Assembly (NCBI GenBank): GCA_963790405.1
Contig: CAWBOJ010000006.1
Location: 380,858-444,857 of the forward strand
Source of the DNA: an uncultured Actinomycetota bacterium
GTDB lineage: Bacteria; Actinomycetota; Coriobacteriia; Anaerosomatales; JAGXFU01
Reading direction: 5' to 3'
DNA length: 64,000 nucleotides
This document shows, piece after piece, positions 58,557 to 64,000 of the stretch. The notes below the pieces were generated by a model that worked only from the letters and a program-made list of their open reading frames with translations, did no database searches and was not told where the DNA came from. The first letter of the stretch is position 1. The number at the start of each line of letters is the position of its first letter. Both the position numbers and the translations under genes were made by a program.

Positions 58557-59957
58557 GTGGAGCTCATACAGCGGCCCGATCTCAAACAGAAGATCACGCT
58601 CTCGCCGCAGGTTTACCAGGGACTCAGCATTCTTGCGATGCCCGTCGCCGAACTCCAACAGCTTGTTGAGGCGGAGCTTCTGGAGAATCCCATGCTCGAG
58701 GTCGAAGAGCCGGAAAATGACGAAGAGCCGGCGGACGAGTACGAAGAGCGCGAGAACTCCGAGGAAGAGGATCGGGCCTGGGACGATTGGCTCGACATGT
58801 ACGACGAACTCGAGTCTTCGGAGACGACGGGGCCACGCGATCCGAATGAGGAAGCTGCAAACACCGAGGACTTTGTTGGCGGTATCCAGACGTTCGATGC
58901 GTACTTGATCGAGCAGATCGGCTTGCTGGATATCCCATCCGAAGTCTCCCGGGCTGCGCGCGCGATCATCGGGTTTCTCGACCGCGACGGCTTCTTTGCT
59001 GGCGAGTGTACAGAGGTCGCCGCGGTGGCAGATGTGGATGTTGAGACGGCCGAGCAGGCTCTGCGGGTCGTGCAGCAGTTGGATCCGCCAGGTGTCGGTG
59101 CGCGGACTCTCACCGAGGCATTGCGCATCCAGATGGAATACCTGGGCATGGACGAGCCGGTCCTGGACATGATCGTCGAGAGCCACATGAGCGATGTCGC
59201 CGCGAACCACTATCGCAAGATCGCTCGAGCGCTGCGCGTGGATGAAGATGAGATCAGGCGCGTCGTTGAGTTACTCAAGACTCTCAATCCGCGACCGGCG
59301 GGCGCATTCTCGCCCGGCCCCTCGCCCGGATACATCGTTCCCGATGTGACACTCCGCCGCTTCGACGCCGATTGGCTGATCATCCCCAACAACGAGGCGG
59401 TTCCGACTCTTCGGGTCAGCCCTCGCTACCGAGCAATGCTCAGATCGGGCTCGACGGCCGACGACGACACGAGACGGTATCTGAAGGACAAGATTCGATC
59501 GGCGGAGAGCTTCATCCGCAATGTGGATCGACGCAAGGACACGGTAAGTCGCATCGCGGAGATCATCTTGGACGTTCAATCGGAGTTCTTCGAGGACGGG
59601 AAGGGTTTGCTCCGTCCGCTGCGGCTCGAGGATGTGGCTGTTGAGATCGGCGTGCATCTATCGACGGTGAGCCGTGGGGTCACCGGAAAGTACATGGCGA
59701 CTCCCTACGGGCTGTTCGAGTTGAAGCACTTCTTCTCGGGAGGCTACCGGACGCGAACGGGCACCGACGTCGCTTCCACAAGCATCAAGCAGCGACTCAA
59801 GGAGATCGTCGGTGACGAGAGTCTGGAAAAGCCCTGGTCCGATCAGAAACTTGCCGAGCTGCTGTCGGACGAGGGAGTCACGGTAGCTCGTAGAACTGTG
59901 GCCAAGTATCGCGAGGAGCTGGGAATCGCTCCTTCGTGGGCACGGAGACGCCGATGA
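58557..59957 (+). CDS. rpoN: RNA polymerase sigma-54 factor
   Basis: ELLENPMLE, DPPGVGAR, HLSTVSR, RpoN box ARRTVAKYRE. Confidence 0.96.
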   Translation: MELIQRPDLKQKITLSPQVYQGLSILAMPVAELQQLVEAELLENPMLEVEEPENDEEPADEYEERENSEEEDRAWDDWLDMYDELESSETTGPRDPNEEAANTEDFVGGIQTFDAYLIEQIGLLDIPSEVSRAARAIIGFLDRDGFFAGECTEVAAVADVDVETAEQALRVVQQLDPPGVGARTLTEALRIQMEYLGMDEPVLDMIVESHMSDVAANHYRKIARALRVDEDEIRRVVELLKTLNPRPAGAFSPGPSPGYIVPDVTLRRFDADWLIIPNNEAVPTLRVSPRYRAMLRSGSTADDDTRRYLKDKIRSAESFIRNVDRRKDTVSRIAEIILDVQSEFFEDGKGLLRPLRLEDVAVEIGVHLSTVSRGVTGKYMATPYGLFELKHFFSGGYRTRTGTDVASTSIKQRLKEIVGDESLEKPWSDQKLAELLSDEGVTVARRTVAKYREELGIAPSWARRRR

Positions 59958-61480
59958 GCGAGACGGATCGCGATATTGAGCAAGCGAATCCTCGGCGAAT
60001 GACGTACACGCGTACGGCACGGCAGGTGCTCACGATCGCGGGGATGCTCATCGCGGTCACGGTACTCCATCTGTACGCGAACTCCTTCGGGCAGGTTGAC
60101 TGGCTGCATCTGCTGTATCGACGGCTCTACTACGTGCCAATCCTGTATGCGGCCTTCATCTTTGGAAAACGCGGCGGATTCCTTACGGCGGTAGCCGCGT
60201 CGATGCCCTTCGCTATGTACGCCCACATGTCACTCGGCGGGCTCTTCGGCGATCATGTCGACAATCTGCTTGAGATCGTCATGTACTTCGCCGTGGGTGT
60301 TCTGTTCGGTGCGCTTCATGACATGGAGGAGCGCAAGACTCGTGACTTGCGTCAGGTGTCCGTGCGCCTCGAAGATGCGTATCGCAAGCTTGAGGAGCGC
60401 GCGATTCAGCTCATCAACATTCAGGACTATACGCAGTCCATCTTGCGCTCGATCACGTCCGGCGTCCTGACGGTTGGACCGGATGGCTCCGTGACGACGG
60501 TGAATCCTGCTGCAGAACGCATGTTGGGCGTCAACGAGTACGACATCGTTCCTCGGCCAATAGGCGCGATTCTCTCCGACGACGGTGGACTTAGCACTGA
60601 CATGGACAAGGTGCTGTCGGGCCGGTTGCCGCTGTCGCTGCGCGAGGTAACGATCGTGACGCGCGACATGCGAACGATACACGTGCAGGCTTCGACATCG
60701 CGCATGAGAGCGGTCGGAGGACGAATCCTCGGCGCGGTGGTGACGCTGGAAGACGTGTCCGAGATCAAGGCGCTCACCGAGCAACTCATACGCGCCGATA
60801 GGCTTGCAGCGATGGGGGAACTCACGGCTGGGGTGGCTCACGAGGTGCGCAACCCTTTGGGAGTCATCCGGGCCACCGTACAGCTGCTCGAAGATGCTCG
60901 CGGTGACAGAACGCGTACAAAGGAGGCGGCCGATGTCATCAAACAAGAGATCGACCGCCTGGACAGAGTGATCAAAGCGCTTCTCGATTTCGGGCGTCCG
61001 AGTAGCCCCACGTTCGTCCATACGGACGTGGAGGATGTGCTGCACGACGTGCTGCTGTTCACGGGTCGGTTCGCCAAGCAGGCGGACGTGAGGATAGTCG
61101 AGAAGCTGAAGGGCGGACTGCCGCCGGTGACCGCGGATCCCGATCAGCTCAAGCAGGTAGTGCTGAACCTTGTCACCAACGCCGTTCAGGCCATGGAAGA
61201 CGGCGGGGGTACCATCACTCTAGAGACCGACACAGACGGGGATTTCGTTCATATCTCGGTTGGCGACACGGGCCCGGGTATTCCGGCGTCCAGCATCGGC
61301 AAAGTCTTCGACCCGTTCTTCTCCACAAGAGATGACGGGACCGGTCTCGGTCTGACGATCGTGCACAGGATCATCGACCAGCACGACGGACACATTGAAG
61401 TGGGAAGCGGCCCGGAGGGTACGGTATTCAGAGTCTCACTTCCGGCGGTCTTGGATGAACAGGCGGAGGGCACCGAATGA
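59954..61480 (+). CDS. Membrane-bound PAS sensor histidine kinase
   Basis: N-terminal TM region (LHLLYRRLYYVPI), PAS, AHEVRNPL, NLVTNA, DTGPG, GTGLGL. Confidence 0.93.
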   Translation: MSETDRDIEQANPRRMTYTRTARQVLTIAGMLIAVTVLHLYANSFGQVDWLHLLYRRLYYVPILYAAFIFGKRGGFLTAVAASMPFAMYAHMSLGGLFGDHVDNLLEIVMYFAVGVLFGALHDMEERKTRDLRQVSVRLEDAYRKLEERAIQLINIQDYTQSILRSITSGVLTVGPDGSVTTVNPAAERMLGVNEYDIVPRPIGAILSDDGGLSTDMDKVLSGRLPLSLREVTIVTRDMRTIHVQASTSRMRAVGGRILGAVVTLEDVSEIKALTEQLIRADRLAAMGELTAGVAHEVRNPLGVIRATVQLLEDARGDRTRTKEAADVIKQEIDRLDRVIKALLDFGRPSSPTFVHTDVEDVLHDVLLFTGRFAKQADVRIVEKLKGGLPPVTADPDQLKQVVLNLVTNAVQAMEDGGGTITLETDTDGDFVHISVGDTGPGIPASSIGKVFDPFFSTRDDGTGLGLTIVHRIIDQHDGHIEVGSGPEGTVFRVSLPAVLDEQAEGTE

Positions 61481-62826
61481 GCATGCGCGTGCTGATTGTG
61501 GACGATGAGAAGAACATGAGATGGGTGCTGAGTCAGGCGCTCGAGGCCGACGGCTTCGAGATCGCCCAGGCGACCAACGGCAAAGAGGCGCTTGAGGCGG
61601 TTGGGGAACAGGCGCCGGACATCATGGTTCTCGATCACCGCATGCCTGCGCCGGACGGCATGGAGGTACTGCGACGGGTGCGGGCGAACGGACACACGTT
61701 CCCGATTATCATGCTCACGGCTCACGGCAACGTCCAAACGGCAGTCGAGGCGATGAAGGCCGGGGCCAACGAGTACTTGACCAAACCGTTCGACCTCGAG
61801 GAGCTCAAGCTCGCGATCGACAAGGCACTCAAGATGAGCAATCTCGCCGCCGAAGTGGAGCGGTTGCGCGAAGAGTTGGACAAGGAGTACGACGTCGAGG
61901 GAATCATCGCTGCCGATCCAACGATGCTCGATGTGTTCGAAAACGTTCGCAAAGTCGCTCCGACGAACGCTACTGTCATGATCTACGGCGAATCCGGTAC
62001 CGGGAAGGAGCTCGTGGCTCGGGCTATACACGCCCTTTCCGGCCGAGAAGACCAGCCCTTCATTTCGGTGAGCGCGGGTGCTTTGCCCGAGACGCTTCTC
62101 GAAAGTGAACTCTTCGGTTTTGAGAAAGGCGCGTTCACTGGAGCAGTGACAGCCAAGCCGGGCCGATTCGAGATGGCCAACGGCGGCACGCTGTTTCTGG
62201 ACGAGATCGGTGATATCTCGCCCGCGACTCAGGTGAAGCTTCTGCGCGTGCTTCAGGAGCGACGATTCGAGCGACTGGGTGGCACGCGATCGATCGACAT
62301 CGATGTTCGCGTTGTGGCTGCGACGAACCGTGACCTTCAGCAGCTCATTGCTGAAGGCATGTTCCGCGAGGATCTCTTCTACCGGCTGAACGTTGTGCCC
62401 ATTCAGCTGCCACCATTGCGTTCGCGGGTGGCAGATGTGCCCCGTCTCGTTGCCCACTTCCTTGAGAAGTACAAAGCCGGCGATCGCAAACTGAGCGACG
62501 AGGCAATGGAGGCGCTCGTAACCTACAAGTGGCCTGGCAACGTCCGCGAACTCGAGAACACAATCGAGCGAATCGTCATCTTGGCGCAAGGCAACGAGAT
62601 CGGCGTAGTCGACCTGCCTGCCGAGGTAAGGCTGGGAGGTGCGGCGTGTCAGGTGGGAGGTACCGGAATCATTCTGCCTGAAGACGGATGCGATCTCGAG
62701 GAGGTCGAGCTCGACCTTGTGCGTCAGGCGCTCGATCGCACCGGGGGTAGTGCGCCCAAGGCAGCGAAGATGCTCGGGCTGACCACCAAGACACTCGAAG
62801 CGCGCATGAGCAGACTCGGACTCTAG
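61477..62826 (+). CDS. NtrC-family sigma54-dependent response regulator
   Basis: Receiver domain, [29 protein letters not shown]-terminal HTH. Confidence 0.96.
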
Positions 62827-63596: not shown

Positions 63597-63640
63597 TCTG
63601 TCATCGCCCAACGACCGACAAACGAGAGGACCATCAAGAC

Positions 63641-64000
63641 ATGAGCGAGACGACGTATGCGGCATCGAGTCGCACGAAGTACATTCTTGTTGCCGTAGTG
63701 GTTGTACTGGCGTTCTTCGCTGCATACGGTATCGCGTCAGGCCGCGCGGATGCTTCCTCACAGACTGCCATCCCGGCCACGACAGCCAACGGTTCTGGAA
63801 CCGCTGCTGCGTGTGACCCTGCGGCTGATCTGGCAGCGTGTGGTGGAGACTGTTGCGAATCAGGCTCGTCCGAGCTGATCGAAGGAAGTGCGACGCTTGA
63901 AGGCGATGTGCAGAAGCTGTACGTGGATGTCTCGGGCGGCAGTTTCGATCCGAACGTCATCTACGTGAAGGCTGGCGTTCCGATCGAGCTCACGTTCAGC
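63641..64000 (+). CDS. Membrane-anchored cupredoxin-like protein with Cys-rich linker (3'-truncated)
   Basis: Translated by hand (absent from ORF track): TM helix, CDP..CGGDCC, then FDPNVIYVKAGVPIELTF. Confidence 0.7.
   Translation, partial: MSETTYAASSRTKYILVAVVVVLAFFAAYGIASGRADASSQTAIPATTANGSGTAAACDPAADLAACGGDCCESGSSELIEGSATLEGDVQKLYVDVSGGSFDPNVIYVKAGVPIELTFS

Follow-up and report, generated by a model that had tools for sequence, protein, structure and literature searches.

What is a sigma-54 factor doing in an actinobacterium, and what does it control there? The question is raised by a 64,000-nucleotide stretch of contig CAWBOJ010000006.1 (hereafter the window), near the end of which the sigma-54 gene rpoN, a sensor histidine kinase gene and the gene of an NtrC-type activator follow one another as a cassette. 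A preliminary description of this DNA proposed that sigma-54 is packaged here with a dedicated activator to drive a copper and metal-handling regulon, as an alternative to control by CsoR, CueR or CopY. Comparison with related genomes gives a different emphasis. The explanation that best accounts for the data, to which we assign a probability of roughly 0.6, is that the cassette is an inherited sigma-54 switch, most likely activating its own operon and driving the promoters of metal genes, of clpC and of small RNAs.

Results

Sigma-54 in the host's order and phylum

The source genome (handle G000) is a metagenome-assembled genome of 2.49 Mb in 8 contigs, 85% complete, and the window lies within a contig of 598 kb. 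The host belongs to the Coriobacteriia and most likely to the order Anaerosomatales (OPB41). Throughout, G-handles denote genomes, L-handles loci of relatives and C-numbers contigs of the source genome. The reference set for comparing loci consisted of the 31 closest RpoN loci, at 52-82% identity to this one. Of 401 genomes sampled from the phylum, 13 gave an rpoN match, five of them from the window's own order; within that order the figure was 139 of 146 (95/98 among high-quality genomes). Sigma-54 is rare in the phylum and routine in one order, and the order is itself the exception within the phylum. The statement in the preliminary description that most well-studied Actinomycetota lack sigma-54 therefore held. 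It had also made its case depend on the host not belonging to a group in which rpoN is routine, and here the answer is divided: rpoN is routine at the level of the order and exceptional at the level of the phylum.

In the part of the survey by Francke et al. 2011 that concerns them (PMC3162934), the Actinobacteria are without a sigma-54 system. Full-text literature pairing sigma-54 with Coriobacteriia, or Actinobacteria with rpoN, gave no description of the module, and a term search of the text of the Anaerosomatales description paper (PMC9686372) found neither 'sigma' nor 'rpoN'. As a side observation, a search for WhiB (PF02467) matched neither the source genome nor any of the 61 class members sampled, and it did match the Corynebacterium control genome.

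The rpoN-kinase-activator cassette

Coordinates of all features are collected in Table 1. The product of rpoN belongs to the sigma-54 family, with matches to PF00309 (Sigma54_AID, 47.2 bits), PF04963 (CBD, 165.7 bits) and PF04552 (DBD, 187.9 bits), a score above the cut-off of NCBIfam model TIGR02395 (390.8 against 277 bits) and the RpoN box ARRTVAKYR visible in its translation. It is the sole rpoN match in the source genome. The activator scores 119 bits against PF00072, 238.9 against PF00158 and 40.3 against PF02954, and its translation holds the GAFTGA loop and the Walker A motif GESGTGKE, which together identify an NtrC-type enhancer-binding protein. The membrane domain of the kinase consists of four helices with no periplasmic loop and has only a weak DUF4118-like match; its invariant residues in 13 orthologs include H52, R56, R57 and D103. 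Many residues of the conserved PAS domain are likewise invariant. Neither protein reached the NCBIfam equivalog cut-offs of known systems (kinase: AtoS 359.6, cut-off 646, and ZraS 209.5, cut-off 479; activator: AtoC 498.7, cut-off 714, and ZraR 412.8, cut-off 760), and the pair is not assigned to ZraSR or AtoSC.

The three genes are joined by ATGA overlaps, in which the rpoN stop codon shares bases with the kinase ATG (59954-59957) and the kinase stop codon with the activator ATG (61477-61480). The activator is also the only strong PF00158 match in the source genome (241.9 bits). The next match, on another contig, scores 33.6 bits, and the open reading frame (ORF) of ClpC matches more weakly still. 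Across the order, 113 of the 146 genomes have one strong activator match (E <= 1e-25), 26 have two, one has three and six have none. The gene order of the cassette is kept in the 31 related loci, and the reading frames are intact in nearly all of the 139 genomes of the order that have an rpoN match. Both the overlapping arrangement and the pairing of sigma-54 with a dedicated activator, as first described, are therefore confirmed, the count of true enhancer-binding proteins in the genome being one.

A conserved promoter element behind the activator

Directly after the activator gene lies P1, a candidate -24/-12 element. Its pattern, TGGCAY-N5-TTGCA, is invariant in every one of the 29 loci long enough to include it (the source genome and 28 relatives; three further loci stop short of it and were left out), while the five spacer bases and both flanks drift. 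The distance from the activator stop codon is 6-72 nucleotides (nt), with 112 nt in the farthest locus. Among 61 high-quality genomes sampled from the order, 57 have a strict match on the same strand, 2.88-2.97 kb past the rpoN DNA-binding domain (distances computed by hand). The exceptions were one genome with the match 5.2 kb away, one with rpoN at a contig end, one with the variant TTGCG, and G416. The last of these (locus L152) is without both P1 and the zinc-ribbon gene, and its HMA gene starts 31 nt past the activator stop codon.

Within the window TGGCAY-N5-TYGCA is found at two places where 0.11 would be expected, and none of 100 shuffles reached two. Direct reading of the sequence agrees with the preliminary description in placing -24/-12 elements at 62855 and 63309, ahead of the zinc-ribbon gene and of the HMA and cupredoxin genes respectively. 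P1 and the elements before rpoN, clpC and the small RNA genes described below have the features of sigma-54 promoter sequences, namely GG and GC doublets 10 nt apart (consensus TGGCAC-N5-TTGCW) at a conserved position before the gene.

The gene first after P1 is the zinc-ribbon membrane protein gene in 28/28 loci. The listed start of its ORF, 62843, lies upstream of P1, and the start is therefore placed at 62885 or 62933. The residues C, C, G, W, C, P, C and G of the protein are invariant. No known family was found for it in Pfam, NCBIfam or the protein atlas, its matches to Pfam zinc ribbons falling below the curated cut-offs.

Elements before rpoN and clpC

Two further elements recur at fixed places across the relatives. 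The first, xGGTAY-N5-TTGCW, lies 51-77 nt ahead of rpoN in 30/32 loci and is a candidate for autoregulation. The second, xGGCAY-N5-TYGCT, lies 111-146 nt ahead of clpC in 28/29 loci (30 were taken and one was dropped because the pattern missed its ClpC start), with an inverted repeat, TCTGAGT-N7-ACTCAGA, upstream of it. With conserved -24/-12 elements also before rpoN, clpC and the small RNA genes, the predicted regulon is wider than copper.

A candidate small RNA family

Strict-motif matches elsewhere in the relatives, some of which are small RNA promoters, led to an uncatalogued small RNA of ~100 nt. Its locus consists of a predicted promoter, ~10-14 unconserved bases and the transcript, in which a three-part 5' hairpin is followed by a terminator hairpin with a CCCCCC loop. 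The loop of the 5' hairpin (12-19 nt, C-rich) is CUCCUCCCCCC. The family was delimited by pattern searches and an RNAalifold consensus. Searched without the promoter, its 5' pattern turns up in 90 of the order's 146 genomes, with 8 control matches; when GGCAY-N5-TTGCW is added upstream, the combined pattern is found in 89 genomes, at 101 places, against 0 control matches. There are families in which the strict pattern gives no match, one of them with 0 of 15 genomes. A single fold is shared by 46 sequences, with 99.3% of 911 alignment cells paired, and compensatory change is seen in 10 of 20 pairs, a number that 0/500 shuffles reach.

Like 6C (RF01066) and ar14 (RF02344), this is a C-rich-loop small RNA, here with two C-rich-loop hairpins and an intrinsic terminator. 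Membership of either family is ruled out by Rfam scores far below gathering (ar14, 23.4 against 58.8 bits; 6C, 20.5 against 47). No description of a small RNA of this kind in Coriobacteriia was found, though the literature searches were not aimed at small RNAs. We regard it as a candidate new regulatory RNA family for Coriobacteriia.

A natural deletion

One relative, G440, offers a comparison in which the cassette is missing. Its genome is 95% complete and has neither an rpoN nor an activator match. The EamA gene runs directly into ccdA, and the cassette, together with the zinc-ribbon and HMA genes, is therefore deleted rather than unassembled. In the clpC leader of G440 the inverted repeat is kept and the -24/-12 element is gone; upstream of the small RNA, a CATAAT box stands in place of the -24/-12 element. 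This co-loss is the pattern that would be expected if the elements depend on sigma-54. Two other genomes, G498 and G512, have no rpoN match yet keep the clpC element, and are probably incomplete assemblies. What we consider established, in so far as comparison of sequences can establish it, is the identity and order of the genes, the conservation of the promoter elements and the loss of these elements together with the cassette in one relative.

Metal and thiol genes of the locus

In the 31 relatives the locus order is Fech-Trx-zinc ribbon-DUF302-CsoR-CDF-EamA-rpoN-kinase-activator-zinc-ribbon membrane protein-HMA-(cupredoxin)-CcdA-SpoIIE. The HMA protein, present in every operon examined, scores below the cut-offs of the NCBIfam CopZ models. 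The cupredoxin protein carries a Cys-rich linker and Cys/Met motifs, and beyond the window end follow a CcdA/DsbD_TM gene and then an unrelated SpoIIE-type phosphatase gene. Outside the source genome, P2, the second element of the window, precedes the HMA gene in L008, G471 and G493, the last of these belonging to the genus of the source genome, and a weak form of it occurs in L035. At the other loci it is absent, and there the HMA gene closely trails the zinc-ribbon gene.

A P1B ATPase lies inside the operon in four of the 31 related loci (L008, L022, L032 and L035). That of L022 passes the copper-type model TIGR01511 (603 bits, cut-off 397), and those of L008, L032 and L035 are its orthologs. 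In both G493 and G471 a Cu-ATPase is found a few kb past the activator. A DsbD_2-cupredoxin fusion is part of the operon in L008, L027 and L035. The HMA and cupredoxin genes and the Cu-ATPases inside the operons of relatives make a metal link of the regulon plausible.

Is the regulon specific to copper, as was first proposed? The kinase would then sense copper, either itself or with the zinc-ribbon protein or the HMA protein as intermediary; copper handling would be the sole physiological output, and the promoters of clpC and the small RNA would have no function or reflect side effects. In favour of such a regulon are the metal genes behind P1 and P2 (HMA and cupredoxin), the Cu-ATPases just described and a precedent in Myxococcus: the account of CorSR and curA has a response regulator of the sigma-54 type together with CopA, a PF13473 cupredoxin and putative sigma-54 promoters (PMC3707914). 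However, the best-conserved targets are the zinc-ribbon protein, clpC, rpoN and the small RNA, and not the Cu-ATPase; the kinase is without a periplasmic domain and without the conserved Cys/Met/His cluster typical of copper sensors; and a predicted CsoR-type repressor with a second domain of the C-H-C kind is encoded in the same locus. We consider a copper-specific regulon unlikely. Of the original proposal, the link to metals is thus plausible and the restriction to copper is not upheld.

This repressor gene, 2 kb upstream of rpoN, encodes a tandem protein that reads by eye as C-Y-C in its first domain and C-H-C in its second, and scores 65 against the RicR model (cut-off 175). Palindromes of the type ATACCC-N-GGGTAT lie on promoter-like sequences at window 54787 (thioredoxin operon), at 56496 (repressor and CDF genes) and at L006 7050 (ccdA), and a similar palindrome lies ahead of ccdA in 12/26 relatives. 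From the palindrome before ccdA we conclude that this gene probably has its own promoter and that two regulons are interleaved in the locus. With a predicted tandem CsoR-family repressor and three candidate CsoR-type operators so close by, the sigma-54 switch is predicted to act beside a CsoR-type regulon, and not instead of it as had been suggested. A Zn/Cd-type P1B ATPase gene with several N-terminal HMA domains lies elsewhere in the window (9061-11691; TIGR01512, 516.6 bits) and is unrelated to the sigma-54 promoters.

A different explanation is a redox, oxygen or energy-state switch working through the cytoplasmic PAS domain. The hosts being anaerobes, a thiol or oxidative shift would induce thiol-transfer, chaperone and metal genes jointly, the metal genes forming part of thiol protection. 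The thioredoxin, CcdA and DsbD_2 genes interleaved in the locus, the presence of ClpC among the targets and the conservation of the PAS domain are consistent with this. No cofactor-binding motif was identified in its favour, however, and the evidence is circumstantial; we rate this switch as somewhat less probable again than the copper-specific regulon.

Table 1. Positions of the genes, predicted promoter elements and small RNA copies discussed in the text (window coordinates unless a contig or locus is given).
Feature	Position	Strand	Basis or remark
Candidate autoregulatory -24/-12-type element, TGGTAT-ATAAA-TTGCT	58481..58496	+	61 nt upstream of rpoN start
rpoN (sigma-54), 466 aa	58557..59957	+	Pfam, NCBIfam, RpoN box
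Sensor histidine kinase: membrane domain, PAS, HisKA, HATPase_c	59954..61480	+	Pfam
NtrC-type enhancer-binding response regulator: REC, AAA+ with GAFTGA, AAA lid, HTH_8	61477..62826	+	Pfam, translation
P1, predicted -24/-12 element, TGGCAT-ATGGC-TTGCA	62855..62870	+	29 nt past activator stop; invariant across loci
Zinc-ribbon membrane protein: two transmembrane helices, C-terminal CxxCG-x6-W-xx-CPxCG	62885 (or 62933)..63265	+	ORF, alignment
P2, predicted -24/-12 element, TGGCAT-GAGCT-TCGCA	63309..63324	+	54 nt before HMA gene
CopZ-like HMA metallochaperone, GMHCRSC (MxCxxC)	63378..63596	+	Pfam HMA 51.8 bits
Membrane-anchored Cupredoxin_1 protein, 173 aa	63641..64000, plus 162 bases past the window (L006:6499-7020)	+	PF13473 46.9 bits
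Predicted tandem CsoR-family repressor, two Trns_repr_metal domains	55854..56543	-	PF02583 107.9 bits; divergent from CDF exporter gene
clpC predicted -24/-12 element, TGGCATATCGCTTGCT	C6:38628-38643 (L040 2129-2144), outside the window		102 nt before clpC, with radA next
Small RNA copy 1	C3:188869-188995, outside the window	+	with predicted -24/-12 promoter
Small RNA copy 2	C6:142104-141998, outside the window	-	with predicted -24/-12 promoter, -24 = CGGCAC

Other motif matches

Further matches were noted on which no claim rests or which belong to single lineages. A candidate -24/-12 site, CGGCACGAAGGTTGCT, lies at window 52656-52671 (C6:433513), 40 nt before a 244-residue gene whose product starts with a HIHSTHSDG-type motif. 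Other sites of the relaxed motif, none of which carries a claim, are at C1:22368, C2:40052, C3:253248, C3:469202, C6:578094, C7:37022 and C6:490945. Lineage-specific strict sites in relatives stand before a radical SAM/SPASM gene and, in one genus, before hemA. In L050 (G496) and L051 (G548), at ~1470-1520 with the motif taken on the plus strand, the strict element before the radical SAM/SPASM gene has a perfect palindrome, GTAACAATTGTTAC, just upstream. Some families with such extra strict sites also have a second activator. A strict-motif pair in L064 and L065 was dismissed as a chance match, the site being a sigma-70 promoter with a CsoR-type box.

Discussion

How the switch may work

In the explanation that we favour, we infer promoter activity, a signal, a feedback loop and a function and targets for the small RNA from the arrangement described above. 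The membrane-embedded PAS kinase would sense the signal and phosphorylate the NtrC-type activator, which would in turn act at a small number of -24/-12 promoters and open the complexes that sigma-54 holoenzyme forms there. The promoter before rpoN would provide positive feedback above the basal level given by a sigma-70-type -10 box. P1 would drive the zinc-ribbon membrane protein, and read-through or a second promoter would extend expression to the CopZ-like, cupredoxin-like and thiol-transfer genes and, in relatives, to the Cu-ATPase genes. The same switch would activate the clpC promoter and the promoters of one or two small RNAs, and the C-rich loops of these RNAs are expected to base-pair with ribosome-binding sites rich in G. 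Judging by this gene set, the switch likely answers thiophilic-metal (copper-type) stress, thiol stress or proteotoxic stress of the envelope.

Evidence on the other side

A number of findings weigh against this explanation. P1, P2 and the elements like them are promoters predicted by sequence comparison. Counted over the whole source genome, the motif is not enriched (strict, 1 against 1.6 simulated; relaxed, 13 against 14.8), and strict matches across the 61 genomes number 113 against 86 for the reversed-pattern control, with the local P1 site alone standing out under this strict form. Because these counts show no enrichment genome-wide, the evidential weight of the elements lies in their position and conservation. 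An enhancer would be expected inside the activator gene, because P1 lies so close behind it, but no run of conserved synonymous sites was found in the last 160 nt (53 codons) of that gene in 24 loci, and no common upstream enhancer-like motif was seen by eye. The element before rpoN overlaps a TATAxT box in most loci and could be a sigma-70 -10 box alone, although one clade, with TGGTAC as the -24 part, lacks the TATA box and has a separate CATAAT box farther upstream, a separation that speaks for two promoters, one for sigma-54 and a basal one for sigma-70. Downstream of the clpC element there is a conserved -10-like box, GGGTATACT.

For the small RNA, nine of the ten covarying pairs sit in the terminator, and part of the 5' helix was imposed by the pattern with which the sequences were collected. 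The deletion is seen in one lineage only. The palindrome ~190 bases past the window end would give ccdA its own operator. Lastly, the downstream Cu-ATPase that the preliminary description advised looking for is found inside the operon in the four related loci named above, but in the source genome there is none behind P1 or P2. The source genome has its copA ortholog at C2:329756-325635 (minus strand), split into overlapping ORFs of 677 and 413 residues by either a frameshift or an assembly error, and followed on that contig by a DsbD_2-cupredoxin fusion gene. A weak CGGCAC-N5-TCGCA site before the split copA has no counterpart in the stretches examined from G492 or G463.

The missing genome-wide enrichment and the sigma-70-like boxes beside two of the sites (upstream of rpoN and at clpC) could be read to mean that the -24/-12 matches do not work, that the cassette is an inactive relic and that its neighbours are transcribed by read-through or from sigma-70 promoters. 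We consider this very improbable. Across dozens of species the motif positions are invariant while their flanks drift, the reading frames are intact in nearly all of the 139 genomes, and in G440 the motifs were lost along with the cassette.

Origin of the cassette

Among the best 120 matches of a homolog search with RpoN there were only proteins of the order itself, and the protein atlas returned generic sigma-54 clusters only. The same rpoN-kinase-activator order is found in another actinobacterial family (G060 = L140 and G075 = L141), with 36-39% identity in RpoN and 54-57% in the activator. There the next genes are those of an ABC transporter (an FtsX-like permease and an ABC ATPase), and no -24/-12 element lies directly past the activator. 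In yet another family an activator gene lies near rpoN, and a single genome of the class carries a lone rpoN that is unrelated. As part of the favoured explanation, and at the same odds, the cassette would have been vertically inherited within the order.

A bolder proposal, which we put forward tentatively and at slightly less than even odds, is that the cassette represents a minimal, portable and self-activating sigma-54 'plug-in' whose entire regulon amounts to some five promoters, including a post-transcriptional arm of anti-Shine-Dalgarno small RNAs expressed from one or two of these. It would have entered a sigma-54-less phylum and been kept by nearly a whole order; it would be cleanly excisable, with the orphaned promoters rewired to sigma-70 as in G440; and in the second family the same gene order stands before other targets.

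Comparison with known systems

The ZraS/ZraR-zraP system of Escherichia coli and Salmonella is likewise of the NtrC type, is tied to metal and envelope stress and is autoregulated, with a small regulon. It differs in the zinc-binding domain that ZraS has in the periplasm, in having ZraP, a periplasmic chaperone, as its target, and in that rpoN lies elsewhere. Clustering of sigma-54 with its own regulator for one function is reportedly known from the rpoN2-vemR-fleQ operon of Xanthomonas and from specialised rpoN paralogs of Cereibacter/Rhodobacter. Those genes are said to be extra paralogs beside a housekeeping rpoN and many activators, serving flagella or nitrogen fixation; the rpoN of the cassette, in contrast, is the only sigma-54 of its host, usually with the only activator. 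Systems with a single sigma-54, a single activator and a very small regulon also exist, but these are not known to have rpoN in an operon with the activator gene. Sigma-54-dependent small RNAs such as Qrr, GlmY, CrcZ and NrsZ share the -24/-12 promoter with the small RNA described here.

Sigma-54-dependent copper control is already known from CorSR/curA of Myxococcus xanthus. In the portions of that account which describe the cluster (PMC3707914), a kinase and a sigma-54-dependent regulator (PF00072, PF00158, PF02954) stand over genes for a PF13473 cupredoxin and a Cu-ATPase, with several putative -24/-12 promoters within the cluster and a second, sigma-70-family regulator alongside. Unlike the present cassette, rpoN lies outside the operon, the sensor domain of CorS is periplasmic, and Myxococcus, of a different phylum, possesses many activators; the same portions describe no clpC or small RNA targets (PMC3707914). 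All parts of the system reported here are of known kinds: a sigma-54 two-component switch, sigma-54 control of copper genes, an rpoN in an operon with regulators and a sigma-54-driven small RNA. What is unusual is the phylum, the compactness, the apparent self-activation, the small regulon and the clean natural deletion.

Significance

Where surveys, in the part consulted here, record no sigma-54 in Actinobacteria (PMC3162934), a whole order keeps an intact system. With a usually single activator and few predicted promoters, it ranks among the smallest sigma-54 regulons available for study. The order has cultured isolates, and the system could show what sigma-54 needs in order to work after arrival in a new host, with G440 as a natural control for the replacement of orphaned promoters. 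The C-rich-loop small RNA, in turn, adds a candidate regulatory RNA family for Coriobacteriia.

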